From Mobula hypostoma (taxonomy: Eukaryota), in NCBI RefSeq assembly GCF_963921235.1, contig NC_086097.1:62498001-62562000 (forward strand): a stretch of DNA of 64,000 bases, in the 5' to 3' direction. The translations under genes and the position numbers were made by a program. Below the pieces are notes generated by a model. The model saw only the letters and a program-made list of their open reading frames with translations, was not told where the DNA came from and made no database searches. How positions within the stretch are numbered: position 1 is the first letter of the stretch; every line of letters starts with the position of its first letter. Positions 3,480 through 61,640 of this stretch are shown in pieces.

Positions 3480-5350
3480 TTCCGACAGCCCAGTCAGCAG
3501 CAGGAGCAGGCGACAGCAACGAGGTTTCTTGCAGTTCAGCGATGCTTGTTTAAAAGTACAGAAGGGACAAGCAGGGTGGCCATTGTTGGGAGTTGGCCAG
3601 CGGTGAGAGTAGGAGTGTCAGGCTTTGACTCTGGGTAAGCTGCTGTTAAGGTTCCCGTTTTTTCTCTCTTACTGTACCTATTGTAGTAAATGGCCATTGC
3701 GTGTTCTTCATGCCAGATGTTGGAGTCCCAGGTGACCCAGAGACTCCCAGGAAACTACACTGCATGAAGTACACCCAGCTGCAGCTCTTTGAAGACTGTG
3801 TTAGGGATCTGGAGCAGCAGCTGGATGACCTTTGGCTCATTCAGGAGAGTGAGGAGACAATCGATCAGAGTTACAGGGAAATAGTTACCCCAAAGTCGCA
3901 GGAGGCGAGTAGCTGGGTGACTGTCAGAAGAAATGAAAATGTGAATACGCAGTCAGCACAGAGCACCCCGTAGCCATTCACTCAATTAGAATACTGCTTT
4001 GGATATTGCGGTTGGTGATGACCTCCCGGAGGAATACCACAGAAATCAGGTTACTGGCACTGAGCAGAGGTCCATGGTGCAGAAGGGAAAGAGGGAAAAG
4101 AGGGGAACAGTAGTGATTGGGGACTCAATAGTGTGGGGATCAGACAGCAGATTCTGTGGATGTGAATGGGACAACCATATGGTATGTTGCCTCTCAGGTG
4201 CCAGGGTCAAGGACATCTCGGATCACGTCTACAACATTTTGGAGAGGGAGGGAGAGCAGCCAGATGTCTTGGTACATATTGGTACCAATGACATAGGAAG
4301 GAAAATCAAAGAGGTCCTAAAAAGAGAATTTAGAGAGCTAAGTAGAAAACTGAGAAACATAATCTCCTAGGTAGTAATTTCTGAATTGCCGCCTGTGCCA
4401 TGTACCTGTGCGGGTAGAAACAGGACAATTTGGCAGATAAATGTGTGGCTGAGAAGCTGGTGCAAGGGGGCAGAGCTTCAGATTCTTGGATCACTGGGAT
4501 CTCTTCTGGGGGAGGTATGACCTGTTCAAAAGTGACAGGTTGCACCTGAACCCAAGGAGAACCAATATTCTCGCAGGCAGCTTTGTTAGAGCTGTTGGGG
4601 AAGGTTTAAACTAATTTGACAGGGGGGTGGGAACCACAGTGAAGGGATTCAGGATAGGACAGATGGTAAAAAAGCAAAGGTAGCATGCAGTCAGACTGTC
4701 AGAAAGGGCAGGCAGATGATATGCCAAAATTGCAGCCAGCAGGGTGAGTATCAGTGCATTAGGAATGCAGAATGAAAAAGGGTAGCAAATGCAGAACTCA
4801 AAGTGTTACATCTCAATGCACGGAGTATAAGAAATGAGGTGGATGATCTTGTTGCACTTTTACAGATGGTCAGGTATGAAACTGTGGCCATCACCGAATC
4901 GTAGCTGACTGATGGTTGTAGTTGGGAGCTTGATATCCAAGTGTATCGGAGGGACAGGCAGATAGGTAGAGGGGACGGTGTGGCTCTGCTGGTAAACAGT
5001 GGCATCAAATCAGTAGAAAGATGTGATAAGGATCAGAAGGTGTGGAATTTTTGTGGGCTAAATTAAGAAACTGCAATGGTAAAAGGACCTTGATGGCAGT
5101 TACATACAGGCCTCCCAACAGTAGCTGGGATATGGATCCCAGGTTACAGTGGAATATAGAAAAAGTATGTTAACAGGGCAATGTTATGATCATCATGGAA
5201 GATTTCAACATGCAGTTCAATTGAGAAAATTAGGTTGGAAATGGATCTCAAGAGAGTGAGTTTGTAGAATGCCTATGAGATAGCTTTTTAGAGCAGTTTG
5301 TCATTGAGCCTACTAGAGGATAAGCTTTTCTGGATTGGGTAGTATGTAAT
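3480..5350 (+). mobile_element. CR1 LINE 5' half, decayed (ORF1 zinc-finger/coiled-coil plus SGNH esterase; start of ORF2 APE endonuclease)
   Basis: ORFs 3701-3973 (LFEDCVRDLEQQLDDL) and 3999-4370 ([17 protein letters not shown]) are homologous to ORF1 at 50910-51680; LHLNARSIRN, ITES and YRPP APE motifs from about 4800, with stops and frameshifts. Confidence 0.9.
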
Positions 5351-16557: not shown

Positions 16558-16769
16558 GAATAAATTCTTCTCAGGCTTCCAGTCGGGTACAGGTATTGAT
16601 TATAACCAACTTTTCAATGACAAACTCCGCCATCTTCATCAGGGAAGATGAAGCACTGATGAAGATGACGGAGTTTGTCATCAAAACGATGGTTATAATC
16701 AATGCCTGTACCTGGCTGGAAGCCCGAGAAGAGTTTATTCATCATATACGCCAGGAAAGCACTAGATTC
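16558..16769. mobile_element. Second family of short Penelope-type palindromic element, with decayed hammerhead cores
   Basis: 85-bp inverted arms 16558-16642 and 16656-16740 plus a one-sided extension; each arm has CTGATGA-A-GATGRC-GGAGTTT-GTCATY-RAAA. Confidence 0.75.
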
Positions 16770-26136: not shown

Positions 26137-26595
26137 GAATCAGAATCAGGTTTAATATTGCCAGCATAAATTGTGATAGCGTACAATACAATACATAATA
26201 ATAGAGATAACTGAACTATAGCAAATATTTATATATATAAAATAGTTAAACGAAATAAGCAGTGCAAACATTAATGAGGGGGTGTTCATGGGTTCAATTC
26301 AGAAATCAGATGGCAGAGGGGAAGAAGCTGTTTCTGTGTGCCTTCAGGCTTCTGTGCCTCCTTCCTGAGAACAAGGTATGACCTGGGTGATGGAGTCCTT
26401 AATAGTGGATGCCGTCTTTTTGAGACAGCACTCCTTGATGATGTCCGGGATACTAAGGAGGCTAGTACCCATGATAGAGCTGACTAAGTTTACAATTCTC
26501 TGCAGATTATTTCAATCCTGTGCGGTGCACTCCCACCCTCCTATACCAGACAGTGATGCAGCCAGTTAGAATGCTCTCCACAGAATATCTGGAGA
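26137..26595 (-). mobile_element. Rex1/Babar-type LINE 3' fragment
   Basis: Reversed tail aatcagaatcaggtttaat; reversed CLKKTASTIKD and ILTGCITVWY motifs. Confidence 0.75.
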
Positions 26596-27063: not shown

Positions 27064-30000
27064 ATCTACAAAATATTGCTGTGGGAACTACTCTGTTAAA
27101 AATAGACAATTTGTGGAAGACAACACACAATGTGTGTGACAACATATTTTCTATGAAGAATAAAGATTAATATCTCCTCGGCATCCAAATGCATAGTGTA
27201 CTTTATCACCAGGGTACCCTTTGGATTTAGCCCTGAAGTATTAATGATGCTCTGAAAATATTGTTATTGTTCTTGCTAGAGTGGACAACTGAAGTATCTC
27301 AGGCACGCAGAGTATAGCAGACAGAGCAGATCTCCCTCAGCACTGCTCTGAATTAACAGTCTTAACGATGTGCTCTCTATAATGGAATATAAGCCCACAG
27401 TCTTCTAATGGAGTGCAATCAAATGAGCCAAACCATCAATGTTTAAATCTCCAGTCAATGCATTTTAGAAGGATGTCAAGGCCTCGGAAAGATATAAAGG
27501 AAATTTATTAGAATATTGCCAGTTATATGGAATCTTGCTTATGTGGAGAGACCGGAGATCGTTTTCAATGCAGCTCTTTAATGTTCTTCATCAATTTTCA
27601 CACAATCAGCCTAATGACCTCCTGTGCTGCGAAAGTCTATTATTCTACAATCTGTTGAGATATTATTATATTATTTGATTAAAATACCAGTTTAAACATC
27701 TGTTGGAAGTATTTCAGTCCATTCTTTAAGGCATTTTTAAGACACTCTATGTTTCCTACCTAACTATCCTGCCTCGTGAAATTGTTTTCAATGGCTAATT
27801 TAAACTAGCATCAACCTGCTGTCTAGAAATAGTTCATGAATATAACTGCATCCATGGGATTTCAAGATATTTACTCTAATGCTTGAATATACCAAACAAT
27901 CTGGGAGTCTGTATGTAAGGATAAGAAATACATAGACTACACGTGGCTTTCCATCCATTGCAACCATTCAGGTATTCCTCTAGTATAAAAAAGGTGGAAA
28001 ATCTACCCATCACTGCATTCAGACTGTATCAGATGTTTTTTATATATATCCAGTCACCAGTGTGAAATTGCTCTGTATATCTGCAATGTAAGCCTCACCA
28101 GGAAATATCAACATGGAGAGAATGTTTTAGTTTTCTGTTAATCCTGTAAGGAGTCATCAATGTGTGAAATATGTTGGCACAAGAATATAAGAATATGTAG
28201 GAGCAGACAAATCCTATTTGGGTTTTAGCTTTGCACTTATTTTAATTGATCTCAATCTCACCCACCCACCAGCTCATCATAACAATAAAGCCATTTTTTT
28301 TCTTGAAATCCATTAAGTTACTTCTTCAACTTATTTATATCGTTCATTATTCATGTTTATGTTAAAGCTAAAAAATTACATTTCAGACTGATTTCCTTGA
28401 TTCCTACTAGATTTCAAAGCTTAAACTAAACATGTACGTACTTGGTTTTCTGAACTTATTATCACAGTTAATAACTGGCTTTCTATCTAGTAACAAATAT
28501 GTGGGATGCGGTGTGGGAGCCCAGTGGATGAACCTGCTGAGTATTTCCAGCATCCTCTGTATTTATTCCAGATTGTCAACATCTACAGTTCTCTGTCCAT
28601 TTCCATTGCTTCCATCATAGGAATTGGCTTTTAACTTCACTGGCTCAAAACTCCTTGTTCCTAATTTGATTAGTTGATACTGTCAAGAGCATCCCAACAT
28701 GCCATTCTACACTATGCAGGGAGCATCAGTATTACATGTACGAGAAATTCAGTTGCAGATCCACTGAATTTCTTGTGATCTGTGTAAATAGCCTACCAGC
28801 TATAGAAACATCCAGCTGGAAGACAATGGGATAGAGTTTGTCCTACCCCCTGAACTATGTATGCGATGTTGCAGTTGCCTTCCATTTCCTGAATTTACGC
28901 CACTGAAATCAAGGAAATTAAATTTTGTAAGTGTGCTCCATTCAATTTGTGAATGGAATGGAAGATAAATTTCTAATCTAGTAAATAACTCACAGGGTGT
29001 GTTTTGCATGATAAATCAAAAGTGGATGGTAGAGGAAGGAGGTATGTTAAGTAATGTAAGCAGGGGAACACATTTGTCATCGTTTAGCAGTCCTGGGCAG
29101 AGTTTTACAAAATACTTGATTAGTGCTTTGTTCAGCAGTGTTAATGTCCACCTTCTTTACTGCTGACATACCATGACGTTAGTTTGAAACTTCACAACAT
29201 GGACTGCAGTAACTTGTGAAAACTTCAACTGCAGCTGATAAACCCAATACTTCTCCTGTCTGTATACTCTGGTTCAATAAGTGTGTGGGAACACGCCTGT
29301 GGGTTACATTCCAAACTGAGCTTCATTATGATTTGAAGTACATCACTGACCCTTCATTTTCACCAAATCAAACTCCTGGATTTCATAACTTAACAGCAAA
29401 ATACCTTCACCTCAAACACTGTAGCAGTTCAAGAAGAAAGTTTAAATTAGTGCCCTGAAATGTATATGCACCATTTTTCCAGGGGGGAAATGTTGCTAAC
29501 AATCTCTCTAACCTTGTTACATACAGATCTAACAAAAGTTGTTCATACTATTCTCAAAACATGGCCCAGGAGTCTGCCTTGTGCAATAATGCACTGCTTC
29601 AGAAACATGAGTGTCATCACAAAGAAGGCACACCAATGCCTCACTTCCTTAAATGCTTGCACAGATTTAATATATCACTCAAATCTTTGACAACTTCTGT
29701 AGATTAACAGTGGAGGGTCAATGATTGTATCATGCATAAAGAGTAACTGATCGCACCGCAGCATGGTATGAAAGCACCAATTCCCAGGAACAGAAAAGGA
29801 TACAGAAAATGGTGGATCCAACCTAATCCACCACAGGCGAATCCTTCTGCAATATTGAGTACATTTACATGGAGTGCTGCCACAAGAAAGCAGCAACCAT
29901 TATCAAATACCACCACCCAACCCATGTCCTCTGTTTGCTACTACAATCAGGTAAGAAGTACACAGGCCTCAGGTCTCACATCAACAGGTTCAGGAACAGT

Positions 30001-30158
30001 GATCACCCTACAACCATCAGGCTCCTGAACCAGCATGGAAAACTTCAACATTACTCTGAACAGATCAACAGCCTACAGACTCTCATTCAAGGACCTTTTA
30101 CTAATCATGTTCTCAGGACTAATTTTATGTGCACAGTTTGTCTTCTTTTGAACATTGG

Positions 30159-33100
30159 TGATATGTTTTCTAACTTCAGAAACTAATCGAAAGAAAAACA
30201 CGGGAGCCAAGGTTAACTTGTGCACGTTTAGTTTTACTTTAGTGAGGCTCGCATATATGATGTGGTGGCGTAATGACATAAACCATTCACAAACTTTTAC
30301 ATATAATCTGCAATGAATTATGTAAATAACTAAGATTACTTTATCAAAGTATATATTTACAATGTTACTCAAATATTAATACAATATGAAATAGTCAACA
30401 CTCCTTCCTGCTTAGCTAAAAACTGCAACTCAATACAGAATGCATCTCAACTTATATACATATATACTACAGCACAGTAAGTTTTAAATTGTTCCATTTA
30501 GACCCAAAGGTTTAATCGCTGTGGAGGATTTCTTAATCTTGTGGAATAACATTTTTCCTGACAAGTTGGAGGGTTCCTCTTCTTGGCAGGTGTAGGCTTT
30601 GAAACGACGTTAGGTTCTGGGGCCTCTTCTATGGTGGTTGTAGGAGTAGACTCGGGGACTGCAGATGTTGTTCTGGCAGCTCTGGACACTTTTTTCTTCT
30701 AATGATTGACTCCGTTCTCCTCAACTCATTGATGTGTTGTCTCTAGGTGATATCAGACACAATCCGCACTGTGTAGGAGTGTGGTCCAGTTCTGTCCTTA
30801 ATCTTTCCAAGTACCCACTTTTGATCACCTCTGTCACCCATCATCAGGACTGCTTGCACATGAGTAAAATATAAAACCTTTTTGTTTGAATAGTCCACAG
30901 TTTGTCTCAGCTGTTTGTCCTGCACACACCTTCTGAGACTGGGTTTGAGGAGATCCAAGCATGAGGGCAAGGGATGACCCAGTAACTGCATAGCGGGTGA
31001 GTTGTTAGTCTTAGTGAGTGCTGCATTGTGATATGCGAGGAGGAAATTGCTGAGATTCTGATTCAGTGTAATGTGTTCTGCTGACACTTCTGCTCGCAGT
31101 GTGTTACTTAGGCTCTGGAAAAATCTTTCCATCAAGCCATTTACCGCTGCATGGTACAGTGCAGATATAATATGTCTTACTCCATTCACTTTCAGGAATG
31201 ACTGAAAATGTTCTGCCACAAACTGTGGCCCATTGTCACTGACTAATTATTCTAGAATACCAGTCCTTGAGAAGAGACTTCTCAACACTTTAATAGTATG
31301 TGAGGTTGTCCTGGAGGCTATGTGAACAATTCTGACCACTTTGTACAGCTGTATCCACTACCACAAAGACACTTGTCCTCTCAAATGGTCTGGCAAAATC
31401 CACAGAAATCCATGCCAGGGCAATGCAGGCCATTCCCAGGAGTGGGGTGGTGCTGCTCCTGGCATCTTTTGGCATGTTAGAATTCCAAACAGTTCATGGC
31501 AAAGTGCTGGATCTGATGGTCTATCCTAGGCTACTGGACAAAGCTTTGAGTCAACGCTCTCATTCTGAGCATGCCTTGATGAATGATAAGTAGCTCCTCC
31601 AACGCAATAGTTCTCAGCTTGGGTGATACAACAACTCTCAAACCCCTCATAATGCAGCCCCCATTAAGGGCAAGTTCTTCCAGACACTGGTAAAAATGGA
31701 GGAAGTGGAGTTTCTAGTGCACATTCCAGCCATTTTGGATTGTTATGTAGAGCTGAGAGAGTGTAGGGTCTTTTATGGTTTCCCTTTGGATCATCTCTGC
31801 CTTAATATGGAGAAATTCAATTTGCATTTGGGAGAATATGCCAAGAGGAGTGTCCTCTTTTGTAAATCTGTCAGGTATTTCCTTTTCCAAGGGTAAACAG
31901 GCCAATCCATGAGCATTTCCATAATTAGTTGTCCTCTTGGAATTCAATTTTGTAATTGTGTCCCCTAAGAAACAGAGCCCATCTCTGCATTTATGCTGCT
32001 GCTGTTAATGAAACACCCTTCTGTGGATTGAAAACGGACACGAGTGGTTGATGATCAGTCATGAGTGTAAACACAAGTACTGGTTAAAACATTTTACGCC
32101 ACAAACCAGACTCAAGGTCGCTCTGCCAATCTGTGTGCAATTTTTCTCTTCAGTGGTCAGGGAAAGTGATGCAAAACCTATGACACATTCATTTCAATCG
32201 TTCATAATACTGTATGTGACATGACTACACCTATATCATAAGGCAAAGCATCACAGGCAAACTTCACTGGACAGTGTGGATTACTTTGTGTGCGCAGTGT
32301 CTGATACCACAATTTCCTTTGCTTTTTGGAGCTGATTCACACTTCTTTGTCCATCGCCATTTCTTCCCGATTTGTAGTAATGAGTTCAAGGGGTGGAGCA
32401 CAGTAGCCAGGTTTGGCAGGAACCTGTTACAGGAATTGACAAATCTTAAAAGGACCACAACTGTCACATGTCCTTTGGCCTTGGGGCCTCTTCCACTGCT
32501 TGAATTTTTGAACACATTAATATAAACCTTGTGCGTCAATGGTATGACAACAGTAAGTGATGCTTGGATGAAAGAATTCACAATTATTGCATTGTGCTCT
32601 CATCCATAACCTTCTAATAATTTTAACACTGCCTTGAGGTTTTGGCGAAGTTCCTTGTCATCCTTACCGGTAACAGTGATGTCATCCAGGTCACACTAAA
32701 TGCCTGGGAATCCATGCAACACGTGGCCTATAGCTTTCTGCCAGTGTGAAAGAGCAGATGTACTCCAAAAATAAGCCAATTATACTGATAACTCCCTTTG
32801 TGAGTGTTTATGGTGTTAAACACTTTGGGCTCTTCTTCCATTTCCATCTGAAGGGAAGCTTCAGCTGAATCCATCTGTGCAGTCCAGGTACTTCTGTCTG
32901 TTTGACATTATGTGTCCTACTTTAGTGCATTTCCTGCAAGTTTTACATTTAACCAGCTTTGGTCAGGTGTATGTGAGCCCCTGTTGCAATGGTAGTACAA
33001 TCTGTTCGGCCAGGCAGGTTTCAGTGTTGACGTTGCAATTTTGTTCACAATCATTTTCATTATTGATTGCAAATCAATTTTGTCTCTGGCTGCTGTTTCC

Positions 33101-43661: not shown

Positions 43662-46638
43662 TGTAACTCTCAATTCGGCTAGTGGCTTAATCCGGGGAAG
43701 GCAGCCCTCGGCCCGGCCAAACTTAAGAAATATTGTTTGGGTGGATACTACGTGATGTGTCCCCTGTTACAAATCAGTACCATGAAATAACAAACAGTAC
43801 AGAATATGTGATTAAACAATTGAGCTTTATAATTCTTAATTTGACTATATGGTTAGTAAAGAAACAAAAAAAGAAAAGGGCCCATTTTCATGAAACAGTC
43901 TAGTGCGCAAGGTTAGAGCTCACAGTTCAGTCCACTGGTTTCCCGTCCACCTTCAATTAGAGTAGTCAACCCTCGGACCCTCCCTCAAAGTCCACTCCAT
44001 CCGGCGGTCTACCAACTCTCACCATTCGCGGCTTCTCTCCCCAGCAAAAGACCGTGAAATCCCTGCTCCCAGACCCACAAGGAAGAACAATATCCCTCTC
44101 ATTAGATAGTCCCACATTCCAAAGCCCCATTATCTCTAGTCATAACACAAACATTGCTGCTACAGAGAAACCATTACATTAGCAGTGAAACCTTACAGTA
44201 TGTTACACTCTTCCCCCACCAAATTTAGTCATGTCCTCATGACATTGAGATAATTCACCAACCCTTCCTGCAAAACACAAAGTCCAATCCAGATGTAAAA
44301 GGCAGTGGCGTAGCTCCCCAACACGGTAGCAGTCACACTCTGTACCCCTGGTCCAGAGCTCCAGCCTATCCAGTGGTCTCCTAATTCTCTGAGACCTCCA
44401 TACCCCCTCACCTAACCCGTCAGGTTCAGACACTGCTGGGGATACTTCCGGTCTACTGGCGAGTCCTCCCCTGACCTAACACTCGTGCCCACCTGCAACT
44501 TGGACCCCTCTGTCCTGTGGCCAAGCCCCGCTGCAACCCAGGCTGTCCACAGATAGCCCCACCCCCCATTTTACCTGACTCAGTGGGAGAAGGGCTGGAA
44601 GTCTCTTCCTCAGTCAATGGGGAGTTAACACGTGCAGCATATAACCACACATCCAGTATCCCTCCAAATCAGTATCCCCCTCAGGGGTGGGGCCCAGCCC
44701 AGCCTCTCCCGCTGTGGGCCCTGCAATCACCCTGCGTTTCCGCAGAGTCCTCTTACTAGGTGTAGTCTCCAAGTTGGGCTCTGGGTCTACTTGCACCTCT
44801 TGTCCCGGAGCAGCAGGTGGTTCCGATGGAGAACCCTGACAGGCCCATTCCCCTCCTCTGGTTTCACTCGGAAAACTGGTAGGTTTGGCATTTGACTCTC
44901 CACCACATCGGGCTTAGCCACCCAATAGTCCGCCATCTTATGTTTCCCAGGTAGCCCCAAATTCCTTATGAGGACCGGTCTCCTGGCAGGAGTTGGGAGA
45001 ACCTCACCCTTTGAACATATCTCCTCTTATTTCCTCAATTCTGCTTGGCAGCCACGACCCCAGCTAATTCATAAGCCCATTCTAGCTCTTTTCTCATGTC
45101 AGACTCATACTTCAGGTAAGCCTTTGGTGGTAAGTTTCCCTCGTCAGTTTTTCTCGGAGGGCGACAGACTCCAGCTGACAAATGCAATGGGTCTCAACCC
45201 AGTGCCCTGAGCCTAATACAGCATGCCCTCTAAGCCCTCTCGGCTGGCATCCATGTTCAGTACATATGGCAATCGGGGGTCTGCACTGGCGCCTGAGTCA
45301 GCAGCTCCTTCAGCGACTGAAAGGCCTTCTCACATTTTGCATCCCACCTGCCAAAGGGCTCTGACAGGCTAAGATACTCTCCACCCTCTTGTTCTTTCTT
45401 CCCCAAGGGAGGACAACTGAACAGAAGCTGATTCAACGGGTGATTTCAACGAACCTCCGATAGTCACCAAAGAACCCAAGGAACGAGCGCAGAGCCCTCA
45501 TAGTCTGGGGTCTTGGCCAAGTGGTAATCGCCTCTATCTTAGCTGGATCAGTAGCTACTCCAATTCATAAGACTATGTGCCCAACATAGCTAACAGATGT
45601 TTGGCAGAACTCACACTTGTTCAGGGAGAGTTTTAACGCTTGAGCTTTCAGACGGCCCAGCACCTTCAGCAGCCTTGCTTTATGGTTTTCCAAGGTGGAT
45701 CCAAACACTATAACGTCATCCAGATGCACCAATACCTCAAGCAAGTTCATATCCCCCACTGTCTTCTCCATGACCCACTGGAAGTTTGTAGGGGCTCCCA
45801 ATATGCTCAGGGGCATCCTTTCAAACTAGAAGAATTCCAAGGAACATATAGATGCTGTCTTCTCTTTGTCAGCCTCATTCATGGGGATCTGGTAATAGCC
45901 ACTCCCCAATTCCAGCATACTGAACCACTTTGCACCACGCAGGCAGGCCAGCACGTCTTCAGTCCTTGGGACCATAAACTGAGCAGGGACGGTGCGCCTG
46001 TTCAGAGTCCTATAGTCCACACACATTCGTACCTTCCCATTCTTCTTTTGTGTCACTACTACTGGGGACGCATAGGGGCTTTGGGACTCGGTGATGATCC
46101 CAGCTTCCTTCAATTTACACAATTGTTGGCGAACATCCTCCACATCTGCAGGGGTCAGCCTCCATGACCACTCAATAAATGGGGTGTCCTCGGTCACCCG
46201 GGTAGTGTGACGGATGCTCTTGGAATAACCCACATCAAACTCATCAGAGGACAAAACACCCTCCAGCTTCAACATCTTCTCTTAATGCATGTTCTGAAAC
46301 CCCACCATGAGCTCCATTGGGCTTCTTGTTGGGCCAAAATCATTGTCCAGTGCTTGCATGTAATTGACAGCTGTCACTATGGGATGCCGCAACCTGACAG
46401 ATCTCACAACATCAATGTCAGCAGCCCACCCACTCAAACTCTCAACCAATTTCTGTCGCTTTACGTCATCAGAGCACTGCCACTCATCTAACAACTGAGA
46501 GGTCTGCTCCACCCAAGTCTCATACTCCTCTTCCCCTTTAGGGGTGGGCGTTATTCCAGAGAATGGGCGGAGGCTGCCATAGCTGCGAGTTTGAACCTGG
46601 CATTTTTCCATTTATTCGCCAGAGAGGTAGGGTTGCAT
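43662..46638 (-). mobile_element. Truncated, internally deleted Gypsy LTR element with PNMA-like Gag
   Basis: 3' LTR 43662-44207 with TGTAAC...GTTACA ends; PPT ggtgggggaagag; RT (SPYASPVVV..RMCVDYRTLN, VHLDDVIVF) at 45565-46275; gag at 46282-46611; no 5' LTR. Confidence 0.9.
46282..46611 (-). pseudogene. gag: PNMA (paraneoplastic Ma)-like Gag capsid fragment
   Basis: YGSLRPFSGITPTPKGEEEYETWVEQTSQLLDEWQCSDDVKRQKLVESLSGWAAD...YMQALDNDFG matches the Y..LR.FSG...GEE.FE.W....W...D.EK..RL.ESL.GPA pattern of PNMA-type Gag. Confidence 0.8.
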
Positions 46639-46934: not shown

Positions 46935-47878
46935 CATCTTGAGGAAATACTGTACGTCAGTGTGCTACAGGATGAAGAGGAGCTATTTCTTCAACTGCCC
47001 CTAGTTTCTCCTTTACCCTTATCCTATTATGTCTGCAGATAGCAGAACAAATATGGTGACATACAACAATTTTTTGCTTTGTGAAGGATTGAATGTCAGT
47101 TTTAATCAGAGTTTTGTAGATATTAAACATTACAAATGAGAACCAGTGCAACAAGAAAAACTGCCGAGGGTTCTCAGCCTCAGGCAACATCTGTGAAGAG
47201 AGAAGGATAGTGAATATTTCAGATTGAGACCTTGTGACTGAAATCCATCAAGTCCCAATGCTTTGAGTCCCTGACCTGCTTATTCCTCCACATCCAGGCA
47301 TCTAACTCTTTTGTGTCTCCAAATGAGAATCAGTCTTCAACATAGGACAAGGATAACTACATGAATATGCACTAGTGTCTGTAGAGAGAGCTATTTTTGG
47401 TGTCTCGATTCCTGGTAAAGATGTACTTGTCACTCGAAATAGTCTCCCTTTGTAAATATGGATCCATTTTCCTCCACTGAAAATGAAGCAAGTTATATAA
47501 TTGCAACTACAGAAACCATATGCAATTATCTACTTAAACAGGATAAAACCTCAACATACTTTAAGTTCAGTGAGATTCTTTCAAGACTTCAAAAAGGCAA
47601 AAATTATACCAGTGCCTGAGAAGAATAATGTGAGCTGCCTTAATGACTGTCACCTGGTAGCACTCACATCAACAGTGATGAAATGCTTTGAGAGGTTGGT
47701 CATGACTAGACTGAACTCCTGCCTCAGCAAGGACCTGAACCCATTGCAATTTGCCTATCGCCACAATAGGTCAATGGCAGATAGAAACATAGAAACATAG
47801 AAAATAGGTGCAGGAGTAGGCCATTCGGCCCTTCGAGCCTGCACCGCCATTTATTATGATCATGGCTGATCATCCAAC

Positions 47879-50800
47879 TCAGAACCCAGCCTTCCCTCCG
47901 TACCCCCTGACCCCTGTAGCCACAAGGGCCATATCTAACTCCCTCTTAAACATAGCCAATGAACTGGCCTCAACAGTTTGCTGTGGCAGAGAATTCCACA
48001 GATTCACCACTCTCTGTGTGAAGAAGTTTTTCCTAATCTCAGTCCTAAAAGGCTTCCCCTCTATCCTCAAACTGTGACCCCTCATTCTGGACCTCCCCAA
48101 CATCGGGAACAATCTTCCCGCATCTAGCCTGTCCAATCCCTTTAGGATCTTATACGTTTCAATCAGATCCCCCCTCAATCTTCTAAATTCCAACGAGTAC
48201 AAGCCCAGTTCATCCAGTCTTTCTTCATATGAAAGACCTGCCATCCCAGGAATCAATCTGGTGAACCTTCTTTGTACTCCCTCTATGGCAAAGATGTCTT
48301 TCCTCAGATTAGGGGACCAAAACTGCACACAATACTCCAGGTGTGGTCTCGCCAAGGCCTTGTACAACTGCAGTAGTACCTCCCTGCTCCTGTACTCGAA
48401 TCCTCTCGCTATAAATGCCAGCATACCGTTCGCCTTTTTCACCGCCTGCTGTACCTGCATGCCCACTTTCAATGACTGGTGTATAATGACACCTAGGTCT
48501 CGTTGCACCTCCCCTTTTCCTAATCGGCCACCATTCAGATAATAATCTGTTTTCCTATTTTTGCCACCAAAGTGGATAACTTCACATTTATCCACATTAA
48601 ATTGCATCTGCCATGAGTTTGCCCACTCACCCAACCTATCCAAGTCACCCTGCATCCTCTTAGCATCCTCCTCACTGCTAACACTGCCACCCAGCTTCGT
48701 GTCATCCGCAAACTTGGAGATGCTGCATTTAATTCCCTCATCCAAGTCATTAATATATATTTTAGCAACTGGGGTCCCAGCACTGAGCCTTGCGGTACCC
48801 CACTAGTCACCGCCTGCCATTCTGAAAAGGTCCCGTTTATTCCCACTCTTTGCTTCCTGTCTGCTAACCAATTCTCCACCCACACCAATACCTTACCCCC
48901 AATACCGTGTGCTTTAAGTTTGCACACTAATCTCCTGTGTGGGACCTTGTCAAAAGCCTTTTGAAAATCCAAATATACCACATCCACTGGTTCTCCCCTA
49001 TCCACTCTACTAGTTACATCCTCAAAAAATTCTATGAGATTCGTCAGACATGATTTTCCTTTCACAAATCCATGCTGACTTTGTCCGATCATTTCACCGC
49101 TTTCCAAATGTGCTGTTATCACATCCTTGATAACTGACTCCAGCAGTTTCCCCACCACCGACGTTAGGCTATCCGGCCTATAATTCCCCGGTTTCTCTCT
49201 CCCTCCTTTTTTAAAAAGTGGGGTTACATTAGCCACCCTCCAATCCTCAGGAACTAGTCCAGAATCTAACGAGTTTTGAAAAATTATCACTAATGCATCC
49301 ACTATTTCTTGGGCTACTTCCTTAAGCACTCTGGGATGCAGACCATCTGGCCCTGGGGATTTATCTGCCTTCAATCCCTTCAATTTACCTAACACCACTT
49401 CCCTACTAACATGTATTTCACTCAGTTCCTCCATCTCACTGGACCCTCTGTCCCTTACTATTTCTGGAAGATTATTTATGTCCTCCTTAGTGAAGACAGA
49501 ACCAAAGTAATTATTCAATTGGTCTGCCATGTCCTTGCTCCCCATAATCAATTCACCTGTTTCTGTCTGCAGGGGACCTACATTTGTCTTTATCAGTCTT
49601 TTCCTTTTTACATATCTATAAAAGCTTTTACAGTCCGTTTTTATGTACTCTGCCAGTTTTCTCTCATAATCTTTTTTCCCTTTCCTAATTAAGCCCTTTG
49701 TCCTCCTCTGCTGAACTCTGAATTTCTCCCAGTCCTCAGGTGAGCCACTTTCTCTGGCTAATTTGTATGCTACTTCTTTGGAATTGATACTATCCCTAAT
49801 TTCTCTTGTCAGCCACGGGTGCACTACCTTCCTTGATTTATTCTTTTGCCAAACTGGGATGAACAATTGTTGTAGTTCATCCATGCAACCTTTAAATGCT
49901 TGCCATTGCATATCCACCGTCAATCCTTTAAGTGTCATTTGCCAGTCTATCTTAGCTAATTCACGTCTCATACCTTCAAAGTTACCCCTCTTTAAGTTCA
50001 GAACCTTTGTTTCTGAATTAACTATGTCACTCTCCATCTTAATGAAGAATTCCACCATATTATGGTCACTCTTACCCAAGGGGCCTCTCACGACAAGATC
50101 GCTAATTAACCCTTCCTCATTGCTCAAAACCCAGTCCAGAATAGCCTGCTCTCTAGTCGGTTCCTCGACATGTTGTTTCAAAAAACCATCCCGCATACAT
50201 TCCAAGAAATCCTCTTCCTCGGCACCTTTACCAATTTGGTTCACCCAGTCTACATGTAGATTGAAGTCACCCATTATAACTGCTGTTCCTTTATTGCACA
50301 CATTTCTAATTTCCTGTTTAATACCATCTCCGACCTCACTACTACTGTTAGGTGGCCTGTACACAGCTCCCACCAGCGTCTTCTGCCCCTTAGTGTTACG
50401 CAGCTCTACCCATATCGATTCCACATCTTCCCGGCTTATGTCCTTCCTTTCTATTGCGTTAATCTCTTTTTTATCCAGCAACGCTACCCCACCTCCCCTT
50501 CCTTCATGTCTATCCCTCCTGAATATTGAATATCCCTGAACGTTGAGCTCCCATCCCTGGTCACCCTGGAGCCATGTCTCTGTGATCCCAACTATATCAT
50601 AATCATTAATAACAATCTGCACTTTCAATTCATCCACCTTATTACGAATGCTCCTTGCATTGACACATAAAGCCTTCAGGCGCTCTTTTACAACTCTCTT
50701 CGCCCTTATACAATTATGTTGAAAAGTGGCCCTTTTTAATGCTTGCCCTGGATTTGTCGGCCTGCCACTTTTACTTTTCTCCTTTGTACTTTTTGCTTCT

Positions 50801-50904
50801 ACGCTCACTTTACACCCCTCTGTCTCTCTGCACTGGTTCCCATCCCTCTGTTGTGAACTAACCTCCTCACGCCTAGCCTCTTTAATTTGATTCCCACCCC
50901 CCAA
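47879..50904 (-). CDS. CR1 ORF2: APE endonuclease plus reverse transcriptase; a single 1-nt frameshift near 48760 separates ORFs 48535-50904 and 47879-48745
   Basis: LCVNARSIRNK, GITETW, IMGDFN, SDH (APE); YLDFQKAFDKV, GVPQGSVLGP, KFADDTKL (RT); RVVNLWNSLP C-terminus. Confidence 0.95.
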
Positions 50905-50909
50905 CCATT

Positions 50910-51670
50910 CTAGTTTAAAGTCACCTCAGAAGCCCCCGCTAATCTCCCTGCCAGGATATTGGTCCCCCTAGGATTCAAGTGTAACCCGTCCTTTTTGTAC
51001 AGGTCACGCCTGCACCAAAAGAGGTCCCAATGATCCAAAAACTTGAATCCCTGCCCCCTGCTCCAATCCCTCAGCCACGCATTTATCCTCCACCTCATTG
51101 CATTCCTACTCTCACTGTCGCGTGGCACAGGCAGTAATCCCGAGATTACTACCTTTGCGGTCCTTTTTCTCAACTCCCTTCCTAGCTCCCTATATTCTTC
51201 TTTCAGGACCTCATCCCTTTTCCTACCTATGTCATTGGTACCTATATGTAACATGACCTCTGGCTCCTCACCCTCCCACTTCAGGATATCTTGGACACGA
51301 TCAGAAATATCCCGGACCCTGGCACCAGGGAGGCAAACTACCATCCGGGTCTCTGGACTGCGTCCACAGAATCGCCTATCTGACCCCCTTACTATCGAGT
51401 CCCCTATCACAACTGCCCTCCTCTTCCTTGCCCTACCCTTCTGAGCTACAGGGCCAGACTCTGTGCCGGAGGCAGGGCCACTGTCGCTACCCCCGGGTAA
51501 GCTGTCCCCTCCAACAGTACTCAAACAGGAGTACCTGTTGTTAAGGGGCACAGCCACCGGGGTACTCCCCATCACCTGCCTTTTCCCCTTCCCCCTCCTA
51601 ACCGTGACCCACTTGTCTGCCTCCCGTGGCCCCGGCGTGACCACCTGCCTTCCACTCCTCTCTATCACCT
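50910..51670 (-). CDS. CR1 ORF1 (5'-truncated), SGNH/GDSL esterase domain
   Basis: [10 protein letters not shown] (block I), [14 protein letters not shown] (block III), DGLHLN (block V); no internal stops. Confidence 0.92.
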
Positions 51671-53539
51671 GTGAGCTCATTGGTTCTCCACACAGCTTTA
51701 GACCACCTGAACAACACCAACACCTATGTCAGGATGCTGTTCAACGACTATAGCCCAGCATTTAATACCATCATTCCCACAGTCCTGATTGAGGAGTAAT
51801 GGAACCTGGGACTCTGTACTTCCCTCTGCAATTGGATCCTCAACTTCCTAACCAGAAGACCACAATCTGTGTCGATTGGTGATGACATATCTTCCTTGCG
51901 CACCTCAGGGGTGTGTGCCTAGCCCACTGCTCTACTCTCTATATATACATGACTATGTGGCTAGGCATAGCTCAAATACCATCTATAAATTAGCTGACGG
52001 TACAACCATTGTTGGTAGAAACTCAGGTGGTGACGAAAGGGCATAAAGGAATGAGAAATGCCAACTAGTGGAGTAGCGCTGCAGCAGACAAAAGAGCTGA
52101 TTGCGGACTTTAGGAAGGGTAAGACAAAAGAACACATACCAATCCTCATAGAGGGATCAGAAATGAAGAGAGTGAGCAGCTTCAAGTTCTGGGGTGTCAA
52201 GATCTCTGAGGATCTAACCTGGTCCCAACATATCGATGTAGTTATAAAGAAGACAAGACAGCAGCTATATTTTATTAGGATTTTGAAAAGATTTGGCATG
52301 TCAACGAATACACTCAAAAACTTCTATGGTTGTACCATGGAGAGCATTCTGACAGGCTGCATCACTGTCTAGTATGGAGGGGCTACTGCACAGGACCGAA
52401 AGAAGCTGCAGAAGGTTGTAAATCTAGTCAGCTCCATCTTGGATACTAGCCTGCAACATACCCAGGACATCTTCAGGGAGTGGTGTCTCAGAAAGGCAGC
52501 GTCCATTATTAAGGACCTCCAGCATCCAAGGCATGCCCTTTTCTCACTGTTACTGCCAGGTAGGAGGTACAAAAGCCTGGAGGCACACACTCAGCGATTC
52601 AGGAACAGCTTCTTTCCCTCTGCCATCCAAATCCTTAATGGACATTGAATCTTTTGACACTACCTCACTTTTTTTAATATACAGTATTTCTGTTTTTGCA
52701 TGTTTTTTAATCTATTCAATATATGTAATTGATTTACTTGTTTACTTATTATTATTATTATTATTATTTTTATTTTGTTTCCTCTTATTATTATTTTTCC
52801 CTTCAATATTATGTATTGCATTGAAGTGCTGCTGCTAAGTTAACAAATTTCATGTCACACGATGGCGATAATAAACCTGATTCTGATTCTTCTGGAATGT
52901 CTGATTGACTGGATAAAGACTTTTTATACCTGCAGCTCCAATCTTCATGTGGCTGATTCAACATCTCACTAGGAGTTGTCTGTAAATTTCTTCTAATCAT
53001 AAAATGAAATTCACGTGGGAATTTACCTCCATGTCCCACCCCATCAAAACCGATCCTCCATCCACTCCAAAGCACACAATTACATATTCCTTGAAAAAGA
53101 ATTTCAACAATCATTGCTTTCCCTCTTTGCTTGCAAGAGTTAGTATTGAGACATCTCTCCCTCCCTAAATTACTCAGGTGAGAATGAACGGAAAGCTATT
53201 AATCCAGTAGTGCAGGATTATTGGAAACAGCCACCCATTATGACAAAACCAATACTTGCTGCAGCAAGGGAAAGATAAAACAACAGAAAGCAATGGGATT
53301 TTGATTTGGATACCTTTTCACAATAGCTTGGACAAAAATAAAACCAGAAACCAGCAGAATCAAAATCTAATACCTCCATTATGTTCAGAAAGATAACTTA
53401 AAAATGCAGTAGTAAAAATTCCAAAACCAGTGATTCATTGTTTCTTTTTAATGACTACAATTTGTTTTATATTCCTTGGCTTTTCACAGTGTTAATTGTA
53501 GGCAAGTGAAATGGAGAGTTGAAGGTTGCAGGCAAGTTC

Positions 53540-54412
53540 AGATTTCAAAGGAAAGTTATTATCAAAGTACCTGCATGTCACCATACGCAAGCCTGAGATT
53601 CATCTTCTTGCAGGCAATTACAGGAAATACATTAAACACGATAGAATCCGCACACGACAGGGCAGACAACAGCCAATGTGCAAAAAAAAACCCAACAAAC
53701 TGTGCAACTACAAAAAGAAAGAGAAAAATAAATAAATGGCAATAAATATCAAGAACATGAAGTGAAGAGTCCTTGAAAGTGAGTTCACAGGTTGTGGTAA
53801 GAGTTCAGTAATGAGGTGAGAGTCATTGAGTGAAGTTATTTCCTTTGGTACAACAGCTTAGTAGTTGAGTGGTAATAACAGTCCCTAAACCTATTGGTAC
53901 AGGTATTGAGGCTCCTGTACCTTTTTCCTGAAGGTAACATGAGAAGAGAGCATGGCCTGGGTAGTGGGGGTCCTTACTGTTGGATGTTTCTTTCCTGCAA
54001 CAGCGTACATGTAGATACACTCAGTGATTGGGAGGGCTATATCAGTGAGGGACTGGTCAGTATCCACTATTTTTTGTCGTTTTTCCAATACAAGGGCATT
54101 GGTGTTTCTATACCAACCCGTGATGCAACCAGTCAATATACTCTCCAGCACACACTTAGTTTGTCAAAGCTTTAAATGAGATGCCGAATCTTCATAAACT
54201 TCTCAGAATGAAGAGGCACTGCCATGCTTTCTTTGTAATTGCACATATGTGTTGGACCCAGGACAGGTCCTCTGAAATGAGAACACGGAGGAATTTAAAG
54301 TTGCTGACCCTCTCCACCTTTGATCCGCAGATGAGGACTGGCTCATGGACTTCCATTTTCCTCCTCCTGAAGTCAATAATCATCTCTTTGGCCTTGCTGA
54401 CATTGAGTGAGA
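53540..54412 (-). mobile_element. Rex1/Babar-type LINE 3' fragment
   Basis: ORFs 53891-54151 (LESILTGCITGWY) and 54192-54440 (LNVSKAKEMIIDFRR..VERVSNFKFL). Confidence 0.88.
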
Positions 54413-54924: not shown

Positions 54925-55820
54925 AAGTTCAAAGTGAATTTATTATCAACCTCCATATGTGGCACCAGACACAACCCTGAGATTCATCTCCTTGTGGCGT
55001 ACTCAGTACATCTCTAGAATAATAACTATAACAGAATCAATGAAATTCTGTCCAACTTGGGCGTTCAACCAGAGTAGGGAAGACAACAAATTGTACAAGT
55101 GCAAAATAAGAAATAATAAATAAGTAAACAATAAATATTGGGAACATAGGATGAAGAGTCCTTAAAAGTGAGCCCATTTATTGTGGGAACAGTTTAGTGA
55201 TTGGGCAAGGAAAGCCGAGTAAAGTTATCTCCTTTAGTTCAAGAGCCTGATGGTTGATGGGTAGTAACCGTTCCTGAACCTGGTGGTGTGAGTCCTGAGG
55301 CTTCTGTACCTTCTTCCTGATGGCAGCACTGAGAGGAGAGCATGGCCTAGGTGGTGGGGGCCCCTGATGATGGATGTTGCTTCCCTGTGACAACACTTGG
55401 TGTAGATATACTCATAGGATGGGAGGGCTTTACCACTGATGGACTGGGCCATATCCACTACATTTCATAGTTTTCATTCAAGGGCATTGATGTTTCCATG
55501 CCAGATTGTGATGCAGCCAATTAATAGACTCCCCACCACAGAAGTTTGTCAAGATGTCATGCCAAAGCTCTGCAAACTCCTAAGGAAGTAGAGGAGTAGA
55601 GGTGTTGTCATATTTTCTTCATAATTGCACTTATGTGTTGGGCCTAGAAGAGGTCCTCCAAAATAATAAAACCTAGGAAGGTTGAAAATCTGCCTGAGTA
55701 GTGTCGTGACAACAACCTCTTACTCAGTATCAGCAAGTCCAAGGAGCTGATTATAGACTCATGAGAAGAAAACCTGAGGTCAATAAACCAGTACTCATTG
55801 GAGGGTCAGCAACTTTAAAT
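54925..55820 (-). mobile_element. Rex1/Babar-type LINE 3' fragment with an inverted 5' segment (55680-55820)
   Basis: ORF 55234-55458 (GHALLSVLPSGRRYRSLRTHTTRFRNGYYP); 55680-55820 is the upstream LINE segment in + orientation. Confidence 0.8.
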
Positions 55821-56491: not shown

Positions 56492-57376
56492 ACTAGCTTC
56501 CCCTGTCATCTGTTGTGGAGAAATTCAAGGTGGCAAAATGCAAAGCCTTATTAATCTTGAGAGATTCCAATGATATCGTGGTAAAGCAAGCAGGCATTAC
56601 AACCAGATCTGGGTGCAAGTGGGCAGCCAACGCAGCTGTGGAGGAGGCAGTGTCTTCTCTGAAGCTGCGAGATATCATTGACAACCCCTGTGTCGGGCAG
56701 CAAGGCCTCGGCTCAGTTCACCTCCAGCAGTGGGGAAATGCAAGCATAAGGAACAGGCGAGACATGGTACAGGCAGAAGTACGGATCCGTGAGGAAGAGA
56801 AGCGGATGTCTAAGACAGTGGGAGATGAGGGTCAATGTGGGAAGGAGGTTGCAGTTCCCGGATGTGGTGCACACAACCCTACGCCCGGTCATTGTACTTG
56901 GTCAACCAAAGACAAGAAAATAATTCTGGTTGAGCTGACTGTGCCGTGGGAGGAGGGATGGGAAGAGGCCCATGAGAGAAAGGCCTTGAAGTACCAGCCC
57001 TTACTGCAGGAGTGTAAAGACAAGGGACGGCAGGTATGGTTGTTCCCTGTGGAGATCGGCTGCAGAGGTTTCCCAGCCAAATCAGCATGGCGGTTGTTGT
57101 CAGATCTGGGCCTGGACGAAAGGAGCAAAAAACAATCAGCTCGTAGGATGGGGGAAGAGGCAGAACGAGCCTCTTGTTGGATTTGGAGTAGGCGAGAAGA
57201 GGGGAGCTGGAAGCCAGGAGCAGATGGGCAGTGATTTGGCCACCACTGCCGGCCCACTAACTGGAGAGTGTCGTGGTTAAGGGTCGAAACACTCTGTGAA
57301 GGTTGGGAACCACTTGATGACATCTGCTCCTGGCTGAAGGCTACGGTTCCCTTATTAGGTAACTGGAGAATGCATC
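56492..57376 (+). mobile_element. HERO-clade (R2-superfamily, RLE endonuclease) non-LTR retrotransposon 3' part, internally deleted
   Basis: ORF 56515-57234: EKFKVAK..LRDSND..RSGCKW..GLG and the restriction-like endonuclease WST..KIILVELTVPWEE..AHERKALKY..FPVEIGCRGF; the RPDIV motif is present in a shifted frame at about 56880; possible TSD ctaaca. Confidence 0.85.
57257..57325 (+). ncRNA. Candidate non-circularly permuted hammerhead ribozyme in the HERO 3' UTR
   Basis: AGAGUG-UC / GAAA-CACUCU (stem III), GUGGUU / AACCAC-UUGAUGA (stem I plus core) and GGGUC / CAUCU (imperfect stem II), in crossed order. Confidence 0.55.
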
Positions 57377-59460: not shown

Positions 59461-59467
59461 CTAGGCA

Positions 59468-59582
59468 ACACACATAAAAAATGCTGGTGAACACAGCAGG
59501 CCAGGCAGCATCTATAGGAAGAGGTACAGTCAACATTTCAGGCCGAGACCCTTCGTCAGGACTCCTCGTGTTTGCGTTTTAG
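59468..59582 (-). mobile_element. One-armed copy of the 6122-type Penelope-derived element, 14-bp TSD
   Basis: Matches the left arm of the 6122 element plus its terminal cctcgtgtttgcg; TSD aatctctctaggca at 59454-59467 and 59583-59596; hammerhead core CTGACGA..GAAA on minus (59528-59563). Confidence 0.85.
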
Positions 59583-59629
59583 AATCTCTCTAGGCAGCTG
59601 CTCAGTTCAGAGTTATGGTGAATTAAGTT

Positions 59630-61640
59630 ATTTAGCCTGCTCACGAGTCTGATGATTGTAGGCTAATAACTGATCCTGATCCTGGTGATGTGGAAGCAAA
59701 GTCTGTGTACCTCTGCCCAATGGCAGTAGTGAGAGGAAAGCGTGGCCTGGATGGTGGGGGTCTTTACTGATGAATGTCGCTTTCTTGTGGCAGCACCCCA
59801 TGTAAATCTACACAATGATGGGGAGAGTTTTGTTTGTGAAGGAGTGGGCTGTATGCACCACTTTTGGTAGTCTTTTCCATTCCTGGGCATTGATGTTTCT
59901 GTACTAGGCCACAATGCAACCAGTTAGGATGTGCATCTAGAGAAGTTTGTCAATGTTTTTGGTGACATGTTGAATCTATCTGAAATTCCACGACAGTGGA
60001 GATCTTGTCATGCCTTCTTTGTGATGACATACTAGTCCCAGAACAGATCATCTGATATGTCAAAGCCAAGGAATTTAGAGCTACTGACCCTCTCCACCTC
60101 CAATCCCCTAATGAAGACTAACTCATGGACCCTGGCTTCTTCTTCCTGTAATTAATAATCAGCTCTTTGGTTTTGTTGACATTGAGTGAACGATTGTTGT
60201 CGTGGTACCATGCAACCAGAGTTCCAGTCTTCCTCCTATATACTGATCCATCATTACCTCTGTTTTGGCCTGCTACAGTGGTGTCATCAGCAAACTTAAA
60301 TACAGCATTGGAGCTGTACTTAGGCACATAATCATTGGCGTAAAGTGAGTGAAGCAGGTTGCTAAATACACGGTCCTGTGGTGCACCTGTGCTGTTAGTG
60401 AGTGTGAAGGAGATGTCATGGCCAATCTGTAATAACTGCAGTCTGCCAGTGAGAAAATTGAGGATCCAGTTGCACAGGGAGGTAGCAAGGCCCAAGTCTT
60501 TCTTGAAGCTCAGTGAATATTTTCGAAGGGATGATAATATTGAATGCTGAGCTGTAGTCAATGAAGGGCGTCCTGATGTATGCATCTTCACTGTCCTGAT
60601 GTTCCAGAGTTGAATGAAGGGCCAATGAACTGGCATCTGCTGTTGATCTGTTATGATAGTGGGCAAATTGGAGCGGATCCAGGGCACTTCTCAGGGAGGA
60701 GTTTATATGCATCATGACTAATCTCTTGAAGAACTTCATCACAGTGGATGTGAGTGCTACTGGACAACAACCATTGAGGTATGTTAACACATTCTTCTTG
60801 GACACCAGTATAATTGATGCCTGCTTGAAGCAGATGGGTACTTCAGACTACCAAAGTGAGAGGTTGAAGATGTTGGTAAAAGTTCCTGCAAGTTGATTAG
60901 CACAGATCATCAGTACTCAGCAAGGTATGCTATTTTGGCCGGTTGCCATCCGTGAATTCATCCTCTGAAGGATACCCTCATGACAGCCTCAGAGACTGAG
61001 ATCACAGGGTCATCAGGGGCCTCCGTGTTCTTTCAGTCAAAGTGAGCATAAATGGGAGTGAAACCTTCTTGCAATTTATATTGCTTAGTTTTGCTTTGTA
61101 GGGGGTGACAGCATTTAAGCCCTGCCACAGCTGTCGGGCATTCCTCTGTGATTCACATTTAATCCAGAATTGTCACTTTGTATGTGAGATAGTCTCTGAT
61201 GTGTCTTCTTCTGGTTCCTTGTTCCTTAGACTCTCTTATACGCAGGTAGGAGAAGGACAGGCAGATGATCAGAGTTCCCAAAAGTGTACCAGTGGTCGAG
61301 TGTGTTGGGTCCTCTGGTACTGTGGGTGAGCTGTTGATGGTAATTGGGCAAAGATTTCATCAAACATTGAGTGCCAAAAAAGGCTTAATATCTGCCTTTG
61401 GTGGTATGTAAATTGTGGTCAGGATCATGGCGGAGAACTCTCTCGGTAAGGAAAATGGTCAGCACTTAATTATTAGATATTTTAGGTTGGTTGAACAAGA
61501 GTGAGTCAAGACTGCTACATCGAAGCATCATGATGAGTCTATAATGAAACAGATGCCATCATCTCTGCCCTCTCCTGATGCTGGCATCTGGTCCATCCAG
61601 TGGACTGAGAATCCCTTAGGCAGGAACACAATGTCTGGAG
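59630..61640 (-). mobile_element. Longer decayed Rex1/Babar-type LINE (endonuclease remnants, RT, 3' end)
   Basis: ORFs 60118-60687 ([22 protein letters not shown]) and 60416-60805 ([26 protein letters not shown]). Confidence 0.9.

Follow-up and report, generated by a model that had tools for sequence, protein, structure and literature searches.

CR1 ranks among the main vertebrate LINE families, and how ORF2 is synthesized from the two-gene RNA of a LINE is a long-standing question. The window analyzed here, a 64,000-nt stretch of the Mobula hypostoma genome (NC_086097.1, positions 62,498,001 to 62,562,000 of the forward strand), contains an element in which ORF1 and ORF2 overlap on a slippery heptamer, and it raises the question of whether CR1 makes its ORF2 by programmed −1 frameshifting. 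A 22-nt cassette that is conserved at synonymous positions makes this question directly testable with reporters.

Results

A CR1 copy whose two ORFs overlap on a slippery heptamer

The element, copy A, occupies 47783..51670 of the minus strand and has the features of an esterase-type CR1: an SGNH esterase in ORF1, APE followed by RT in ORF2, a short-repeat tail without poly(A), and 5′ truncation. The truncation lies within ORF1; the 5′ end and the first ∼57 ORF1 codons are missing, and homology to the full ORF1 protein P0001 begins at P0001 residue ∼57–60. The ORF1 remnant (50910..51670, minus strand), which ends EVTLN-stop, matches Pfam Lipase_GDSL_2 (4.7e-17), is 96% identical to its best protein match, a Mobula protein, and gives a profile match of 7.5e-44 to the ZfL2-1 esterase structure 4c1b, the only solved relative found. 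In the −1 frame relative to ORF1, ORF2 encodes the APE endonuclease and the first part of RT (48535..50919, minus strand); a copy-specific frameshift at about 48886-48763, in RT, places the remainder in a different frame (47879..48802, minus strand). The 3′ tail (47781..47807, minus strand) has 3.5 copies of an 8-nt repeat by tandem-repeat count. Copy A, being 5′-truncated and frameshifted in RT, is a dead copy and not expressible as an intact element, and statements on translation therefore concern the family and not this copy. The CR1 label is a probable one, drawn from domain content and from a by-eye match of the junction and of a second copy to CR1-labelled consensus records.

The sequences flanking copy A, which end at 47782 and 51671, are contiguous on one uninterrupted paralog (60830-60635 and 60631-60509), showing that copy A is an insertion; a target-site duplication was not visible around it. 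It interrupts the RT region of a decayed host LINE (47401-47782 and 51671-52700, plus strand; paralog at 60830-60214, minus strand), further pieces of which lie at about 11095-11570, 26309-26580, 29744-30079, 53693-54410, 55084-55679 and 59587-60365.

The minus-strand junction reads, 5′ to 3′, GTG ACT TTA AAC TAG AAT GGT TGG GGG GTG GGA A. The original prediction held that ORF1 ends ACT TTA AAC TAG with a heptamer in the correct phase at 50919-50913, and re-reading of the minus strand confirmed this: T_TTA_AAC (50913..50919) is made up of one preceding base and the last two ORF1 codons in X_XXY_YYZ phase, falls in phase within the overlap of the two ORFs, and abuts the ORF1 stop TAG (50910..50912, minus strand), which is TAA or TGA in other lineages. 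The −1 frame, which had been said to run into ORF2, is indeed free of stops from 50925 to 48535, and the APE and RT domains were found there. Counted in codons from the heptamer, the TTG given as the start of the open reading frame is codon 6 (50904), the Asn of NARS is codon 87 (50661), ETW is codon 114, and the earliest ORF2 Met is codon 216 (50274, in IMGDFN), which agrees with the claim that the first Met follows both motifs. The two ATGs found within 120 nt past the heptamer lie in the other two frames. From the heptamer to the APE domain extends a charged, AUG-free linker (50662..50912, minus strand; 86 codons up to the NARS Asn) with no stop in the −1 frame and with six and eight stops in the other two frames; only 0.6% of shuffled sequences were open. 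Within it a run of six Gs (50897..50902, minus strand), whose first G is nt 11 after the heptamer and which is separated from the stop by a free spacer of 7 nt, is a candidate linear frameshift stimulator.

TTTAAAC alone occurs 16 times in the window and is hence not rare, so that the weight of the heptamer comes from its position and conservation and not from rarity. The longer pattern TTTAAACTAR-N7-GGGGG has two matches in the window (0.01 expected), both of them CR1 junctions. Copy B, a second and decayed CR1 at about 3690-5356, carries TTTAAAC TAA, 7 nt and G6 at 4605..4627 on the plus strand. Over ORF1 the two copies are 70–73% identical; copy B keeps TTTAAACTA and GGGGGGTGGGAA, while its spacer and linker diverge from those of copy A, and by eye it resembles the consensus HypSab_CR1-6b (PMC13343379 supplement).

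The heptamer, the stop and a G run are conserved across CR1 junctions

A metagenome scan through ORF1 returned 43 loci, 30 of which matched the ORF1 C terminus and 19 of which had readable junctions. The remaining 11 of the 30 reached the contig end without an in-frame stop; ten stop before or inside the heptamer, and in one (L028) the heptamer is followed by TGC. At 14 of the 19 readable loci the first in-frame stop is immediately preceded by the heptamer (TTTAAAC in 13, GTTAAAC in one). In four damaged loci (L001, L015, L031 and L036) it lies near the projected ORF1 end, where it was placed by motif, and one locus, L039, has no heptamer; in this decayed copy the esterase and APE motifs share one frame, as in an L2-like element. 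The 14 loci together with the two window copies provided 16 frame-defined junctions, which fall into seven clusters at 65% identity; their ORF1 DNA is 36–85% alike, and a comparison of the 300 nt upstream of the junction, window copies included, gave 36–90%.

Conservation of the heptamer beyond amino-acid constraint was the test that the original prediction had offered for its own refutation, and the prediction came through it. The terminal ORF1 codons are Leu TTA in 16 of 16 frame-defined junctions and Asn AAC in 16 of 16, whereas other conserved columns of the same alignment use mixed codons (Leu 71, six codons; Leu 83, five; Asn 30, AAT in nine and AAC in five; Gly, three to four). In the ORF2s of these loci TTA makes up 20% of Leu codons and AAC 42% of Asn codons. 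The rough chance is 0.023 per lineage, with clusters treated as independent. The base before TTA AAC is T in 18 of 19 cases although the residue that it helps to encode varies (T, G, C, Y, H, A, S or F), and the one exception, L007, has G_TTA_AAC, with G_UU(A) being an X_XX variant listed for equine arteritis virus in an excerpt of PMC5009743. Per-base conservation peaks at the heptamer and stop, dips across the 7-nt spacer and peaks again at a GGGGG at nt 11–15. Across the 19 junctions the stop is conserved to the same degree as the heptamer, and GGGGG occupies exactly nt 11–15 after the heptamer in 17 of them; L007 has it three bases earlier and L037 contains one T. Two of the five Gs are third codon positions of the −1 frame, and these are G in 19 of 19.

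Junctions found through ORF2 gave the same picture. A search by APE alignment identified 22 loci, apparently animal DNA within bacterial assemblies, and TTTAAAC-TAG-N7-GGGGG was present exactly in 15 of them, that is, in 15 of 15 readable junctions. The other seven comprised three contigs that were too short, three copies showing no ORF1, and one distant locus. The 15 represent about three lineages, two of them close to loci of the ORF1 scan. Eleven of the 15 junctions are in phase with the APE domain; the other four are not, which is what decay would lead one to expect, although decay is only the presumed cause.

The CR1 DNA in bacterial assemblies and MAGs (L066-L087) includes 14 contigs in one MAG, and a CR1 ORF1 (P0020) is annotated as a Pseudomonas SGNH hydrolase; CR1 in bacterial records is likely animal contamination of public collections. 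One of the APE-found loci, L070, is without ORF1, and its family similarity starts just before the G run, at about 2540-2560, a single case of 5′ truncation near the signal. No CR1 relatives were found in viral contigs by ORF1 or APE alignment. Exact cassette matches at 22 viral loci were taken as chance, since none is CR1-like and in none does a long 0-frame ORF lead into a long −1 ORF.

ORF1 proteins and published consensus records extend these observations to other hosts. Among ORF1 homologues with a DGLH-type motif, 73 of 80 end in LN, IN or VN; the named sources are rays, sharks, coelacanth, frogs, turtles, lizards, a snake and a bird. The ZfL2-1 esterase was crystallized as D136-I302 (PMC3905857), from which it follows that the esterase fold does not need the terminal LN. 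A residue whose codons cannot end in T precedes LN in 2 of 79 proteins, compared with 40 and 31 of 79 at the two preceding positions and 3 and 4 of 79 further up, a weak test given that the 79 proteins were selected by their ending. The supplement of PMC13343379 has 12 instances of TTTAAACTAG and eight of TTTAAACTAA; CR1-labelled records account for 18 of these. By eye, 16 of the 18 lie at the ORF1 end and two near a 5′ end. The hosts of the 16 records, according to the record names, are bowfin, lungfish or amphibian-type labels, coelacanth, chimaera, sharks, rays and crocodilians; the exact 7-nt spacer and G5 are present in six of the 16, the other ten being gap-ridden or deviating. On one strand of the same supplement, six alternatives that end in TAG and are synonymous or non-slippery had eight matches, none of them in a CR1 record.

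Several records are set apart here. Two shark consensus records, SquAca_CR1-3 and SquAca_CR1-18, have TTTAAACTAR and G-rich bases also near the 5′ end, upstream of ORF1, possibly by chance. In three proteins (P0121, P0017 and P0050) ORF1 continues into the −1-frame FKL; a search aimed at longer ORF1 proteins had three matches. Since damage to the copy or the gene model may have produced such proteins, they were not counted as support. FKL, the −1 reading of the heptamer, is also found at residues 14–16 of P0131, a distant CR1-like ORF2 (44% over the APE region), ∼100 residues before the APE motif.

The G run lacks a conserved structure

Consistent with the original description of a G-rich tract with no clear pseudoknot, no conserved fold was found at the junctions by folding or by Rfam, in which the junction had no match. 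Downstream of the copy A heptamer there is no stable fold (z 0.63), and at the 19 junctions the 70 nt past the stop fold no better than shuffled sequences (z −1.7 to +1.3; pseudoknots lie outside the folding model). Neither a common pairing partner for G5 nor a C run recurring at a matching place was seen among the 19 junctions, and a G-quadruplex, predicted in 2 of 15, is not conserved. The structured stimulator that usually lies 5–9 nt downstream of a −1 shift site is thus not apparent at these junctions. A stimulator of the PRRSV type calls instead for a conserved linear motif ∼11 nt 3′ of the slippage site; this is what the G run provides (17 of 19 and 15 of 15). On the strength of the alignments, the G tract is the second conserved half of the putative signal.

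In some copies the length of the G run is shifted: one G is lost in 4% of X1 depth, and G5 or G11 is found in others (50897 run; L022, L075 and L077). An altered length puts ORF2 out of register, and these changes are probably homopolymer slippage in dead copies.

An open −1 frame leads from the heptamer to the APE domain

The first APE motif was recognized at 15 of 20 junctions. At 13 of these the spacing between heptamer and motif is divisible by three, with nine lengths between 38 and 95 codons, and at 12 of the 13 the −1 frame is free of stops across the linker. The open and in-register linker indicates that it is traversed by ribosomes coming from close to the junction, but by itself it does not separate slippage from reinitiation at the stop. 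Upstream of the heptamer the −1 frame is closed within 1–5 codons in 13 of 20 junctions and has an upstream ATG in 2 of 20. Dual coding was on this account ruled out as a cause of the heptamer, since translation from an upstream start does not produce the F-K of the −1 frame. Stop readthrough was also discarded: ORF2 lies outside frame 0, and in most leaders that frame is interrupted by stops.

The long −1 ORF is open from the heptamer, and start AUGs, where present, are at unconserved places. Five linkers have no ATG (copy A, L003, L005, L009 and L031) and four have one at codon 5 (L001, L002, L006 and L013), a codon that is TGG, TCG, GCA, GTG or GAA in other lineages. With L029 included, an AUG lies within 5 codons of the junction at 5 of 19 loci, so that a conserved stop-adjacent AUG is not seen; in L029 the AUG overlaps the stop (UAAUG) in the ORF2 frame, as it does by eye in three shark consensus records (TAATG). 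A Met-free leader would arise by chance with a probability of 0.2–0.5 and is hence not improbable. None of the 11 in-phase loci found through APE has an ATG between heptamer and APE; eight of these copies belong to one family, and two further lineages are likewise free of an AUG before the APE domain. Eight such copies of one family indicate that lacking a leader AUG can be the usual condition of a family. In 68 ORF2 homologs, whose N-termini were set by gene callers, the Met positions are merely scattered.

Variation within the family was assessed in contigs from four runs (1328, 2004, 1 and 61 records over 50866-50955), a comparison that does not capture divergent subfamilies. At a share of at least 1%, the variants over this interval were one substitution (50923, in ORF1) and the G deletion in the G run; none was listed in the heptamer, stop or spacer. 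The variant table seems blind near the ends of a stretch, given that a full difference at 50930 is absent from it and present in a longer comparison. The loose-end consensus of X9, built from eight contigs at a thinly covered far end, has TTG for TTA, and the X1 and X13 consensuses have TTA. X9 is guessed to be RNA, and its contigs show presence, not expression level or translation; the low-share runs X19-X21 were left out. Over the longer stretch, among the 40 of 115 variants that were listed, at least 12 fall in the linker; at least two give an in-frame Met and none of the 12 gives a stop. Leader codon 38 is polymorphic for GTG and ATG, with ATG at 17% of depth in X1, 95% in X5, 9% in X9 and 34% in X13, and leader codon 46 for AAG and ATG, with ATG at 0%, 9%, 0% and 66%, respectively. 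The description of ORF2 as AUG-less, with no in-frame AUG before the APE domain, therefore fits copy A, the greater part of X1 depth at codons 38 and 46, and the family of eight in-phase copies; it does not fit the whole family of copy A, part of which has an in-frame AUG, nor other lineages, which have one at varying positions.

Discussion

A −1 frameshift is the simplest account of the junction

Comparative sequence supports well the view that the signal is real and family-wide. We put at roughly 0.7 the probability that it serves programmed −1 frameshifting and yields an esterase-EN-RT fusion, with G5 as a linear stimulator. This is the simplest account because a heptamer in the correct phase sits on the last two ORF1 codons, its synonymous sites are fixed, its one substitution is to another slippery sequence, and the enzyme ORF lies in the −1 frame. 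The fusion proposed in the original prediction is thus favored for the family, from the conservation and register of heptamer, stop and G5, but does not apply to the flagged copy, which is dead. The RNA signal would have three parts, namely the heptamer, the adjoining stop and the G run at a fixed distance. Most ribosomes would terminate and release ORF1p, while a minority would slip back one base, with tRNA-Leu and tRNA-Asn re-pairing from UUA/AAC to UUU/AAA. The fusion would read T-L-N and then L-E-W-L-G-G-G, and the product would be one chain of esterase, variable charged linker, APE and RT. The pause might come from the adjoining stop, from a factor on G5, single-stranded and positioned just beyond the mRNA entry channel, or from both. 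That a protein binds G5 is a guess by analogy with PRRSV. Only tentatively, and with the odds against it, would we go further and propose that CR1 in vertebrates and more distant animals uses a structure-free cassette, U_UUA_AAC-stop-N7-GGGGG, on which a G5-bound protein (a host G-tract binder or ORF1p) switches on the fusion, making it regulated and Gag-Pol-like and the first G-rich counterpart of the C-rich stimulator of PRRSV.

The main rival is termination-reinitiation, which we consider improbable: UUUAAACUAR-N7-G5 would hold on to the 40S subunit past the end of ORF1, and ORF2p would start on its own from a nearby AUG or from any codon, as proposed for mammalian L1. Conservation of the stop to the level of the heptamer agrees with this, as do the codon-5 AUGs of four loci, the UAAUG overlap in L029 and some shark records, the near-cognate TTG at codon 6 of copy A, and the open in-register leader, which is expected here too; an AUG-independent start is considered likely for L1 ORF2 in an excerpt of PMC5009743. 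However, reinitiation has no need of X_XXY_YYZ in exact phase and leaves unexplained why L007 has exchanged one slippery heptamer for another, codon 5 is not an AUG in the other lineages, and the eight in-phase copies and two further lineages offer no AUG before APE. Slippage and reinitiation could also coexist. We give little credence to a third explanation, in which the cassette is a cis element of the RNA or DNA without a role in decoding (a protein site for RNP assembly, a splice acceptor with a G-run enhancer or an internal initiation element) and ORF2 is made by another route. A linear, unstructured G-run motif would be typical of RNA-binding proteins, and TAG resembles a 3′ splice acceptor, but the TAA and TGA lineages cannot use theirs as acceptors, which rules out splicing at TAG, and joint skipping to the junction is not among the listed contig results (contigs attesting presence only). 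Nor would a binding site need the codon phase or a seat on the last two codons, the sole place where the frames overlap.

Scarcely credible, and largely refuted, is the explanation that the C-terminal LN is needed in the protein and its nucleotides were merely inherited. LN is nearly invariant in the proteins and the lineages are related, as this explanation has it; yet the third positions of other invariant residues are randomized in the same alignment, two of the G5 positions that are synonymous in the −1 frame are fixed, and the L2-type esterase ends otherwise.

Relation to known systems

The element itself is no different from canonical vertebrate CR1; the new part is the proposed recoding signal. 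Vertebrate canonical CR1 with an esterase ORF1 is described in PMC4120745 as ORF1 type IVB, CR1 subgroup 7, and is surveyed in PMC13343379; the copies analyzed here share with it the esterase ORF1, an ORF2 with APE and RT, the short-repeat tail, 5′ truncation and the junction in consensus records. The word frameshift is absent from the main text of PMC13343379, PMC3905857 and PMC4120745. A full-text literature search found no paper on CR1 frameshifting; the original 1997 CR1 papers were outside its reach and may already remark on the overlap. The single match that named CR1 and ribosomal frameshifting is, in the portion retrieved, about avian leukosis virus. CR1 would not be the first non-LTR case, given that a figure legend of PMC5911963 states that a −1 frameshift is required for ORF2 of Dictyostelium TRE5-A and TRE3-A. 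These are likewise non-LTR elements of the APE type but of another clade and kingdom and without an esterase ORF1.

A site of the form X_XXY_YYZ that closes a structural ORF and is followed by an enzyme ORF in the −1 frame is, according to excerpts of PMC5009743, an arrangement of retroviruses, LTR retrotransposons, coronaviruses and arteriviruses, and the G_UUA_AAC variant of equine arteritis virus is the one seen in L007. CR1 differs from classical −1 frameshifting in lacking a pseudoknot or stem-loop behind the site and in that the host is a LINE and not a Gag-Pol element. The closest parallel for the G run is the −2/−1 frameshift of PRRSV with nsp1beta and PCBP, in which a short linear, homopolymer-rich motif bound by protein begins 11 nt 3′ of the slippage site, with no RNA structure involved (PMC5009743, excerpt); the motif there is C-rich, whereas CR1 has G5 and an adjoining stop, and its G5 binder is only hypothetical. 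Mammalian L1 resembles CR1, in the same source, in its bicistronic LINE RNA and in an ORF2 that is independent of its AUG, but it has a spacer between the ORFs and unusual initiation is favored for it, whereas the CR1 ORFs overlap on a slippery heptamer.

Zebrafish ZfL2-1 (L2 clade, 4c1b) has an ORF1 esterase of the same family. Its ORF2 was reportedly found by Kajikawa et al. in 2012 to depend on suppressing the stop of ORF1; an ORF1-ORF2 fusion would result there too, though by what is said to be in-frame readthrough and not frameshifting. The PRRSV shift site, for its part, is of the G_GUU_UUU type.

If the frameshift reading is true, the CR1 RT would come fused to ORF1, at a ratio that is set or regulated, and this would suggest a reason for retaining the esterase ORF1. 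The annotation of CR1 ORF2, whose starts are now placed at arbitrary internal Mets, would change, and an unstructured G run would be added to the known frameshift stimulators.

Other elements in the window

Pieces of a PNMA-type gag (Pfam PNMA, 2.6e-20) and of an RT mark a decayed Ty3/gypsy-like element at 45826-46611 (minus strand). Remnants resembling LTR retrotransposons lie at 17391-17966 (plus strand) and 30743-31246 (minus strand), the evidence being an ORF that looks gag-like by eye and an integrase match that is weak (rve, 7e-4, below the cut-off). Long inverted repeats of MITE-like appearance are found at 6121-6325 (about 200 nt, 92%) and 16558-16740 (180 nt, 83%), and one arm is present again at 59465-59564. 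Finally, a 245-aa open frame without a Pfam match occupies 56497-57234 (plus strand); its C-terminal stretch, VELTVPWE...VEIGCRG, resembles the restriction-like endonuclease with which site-specific or RTE-type non-LTR elements end.
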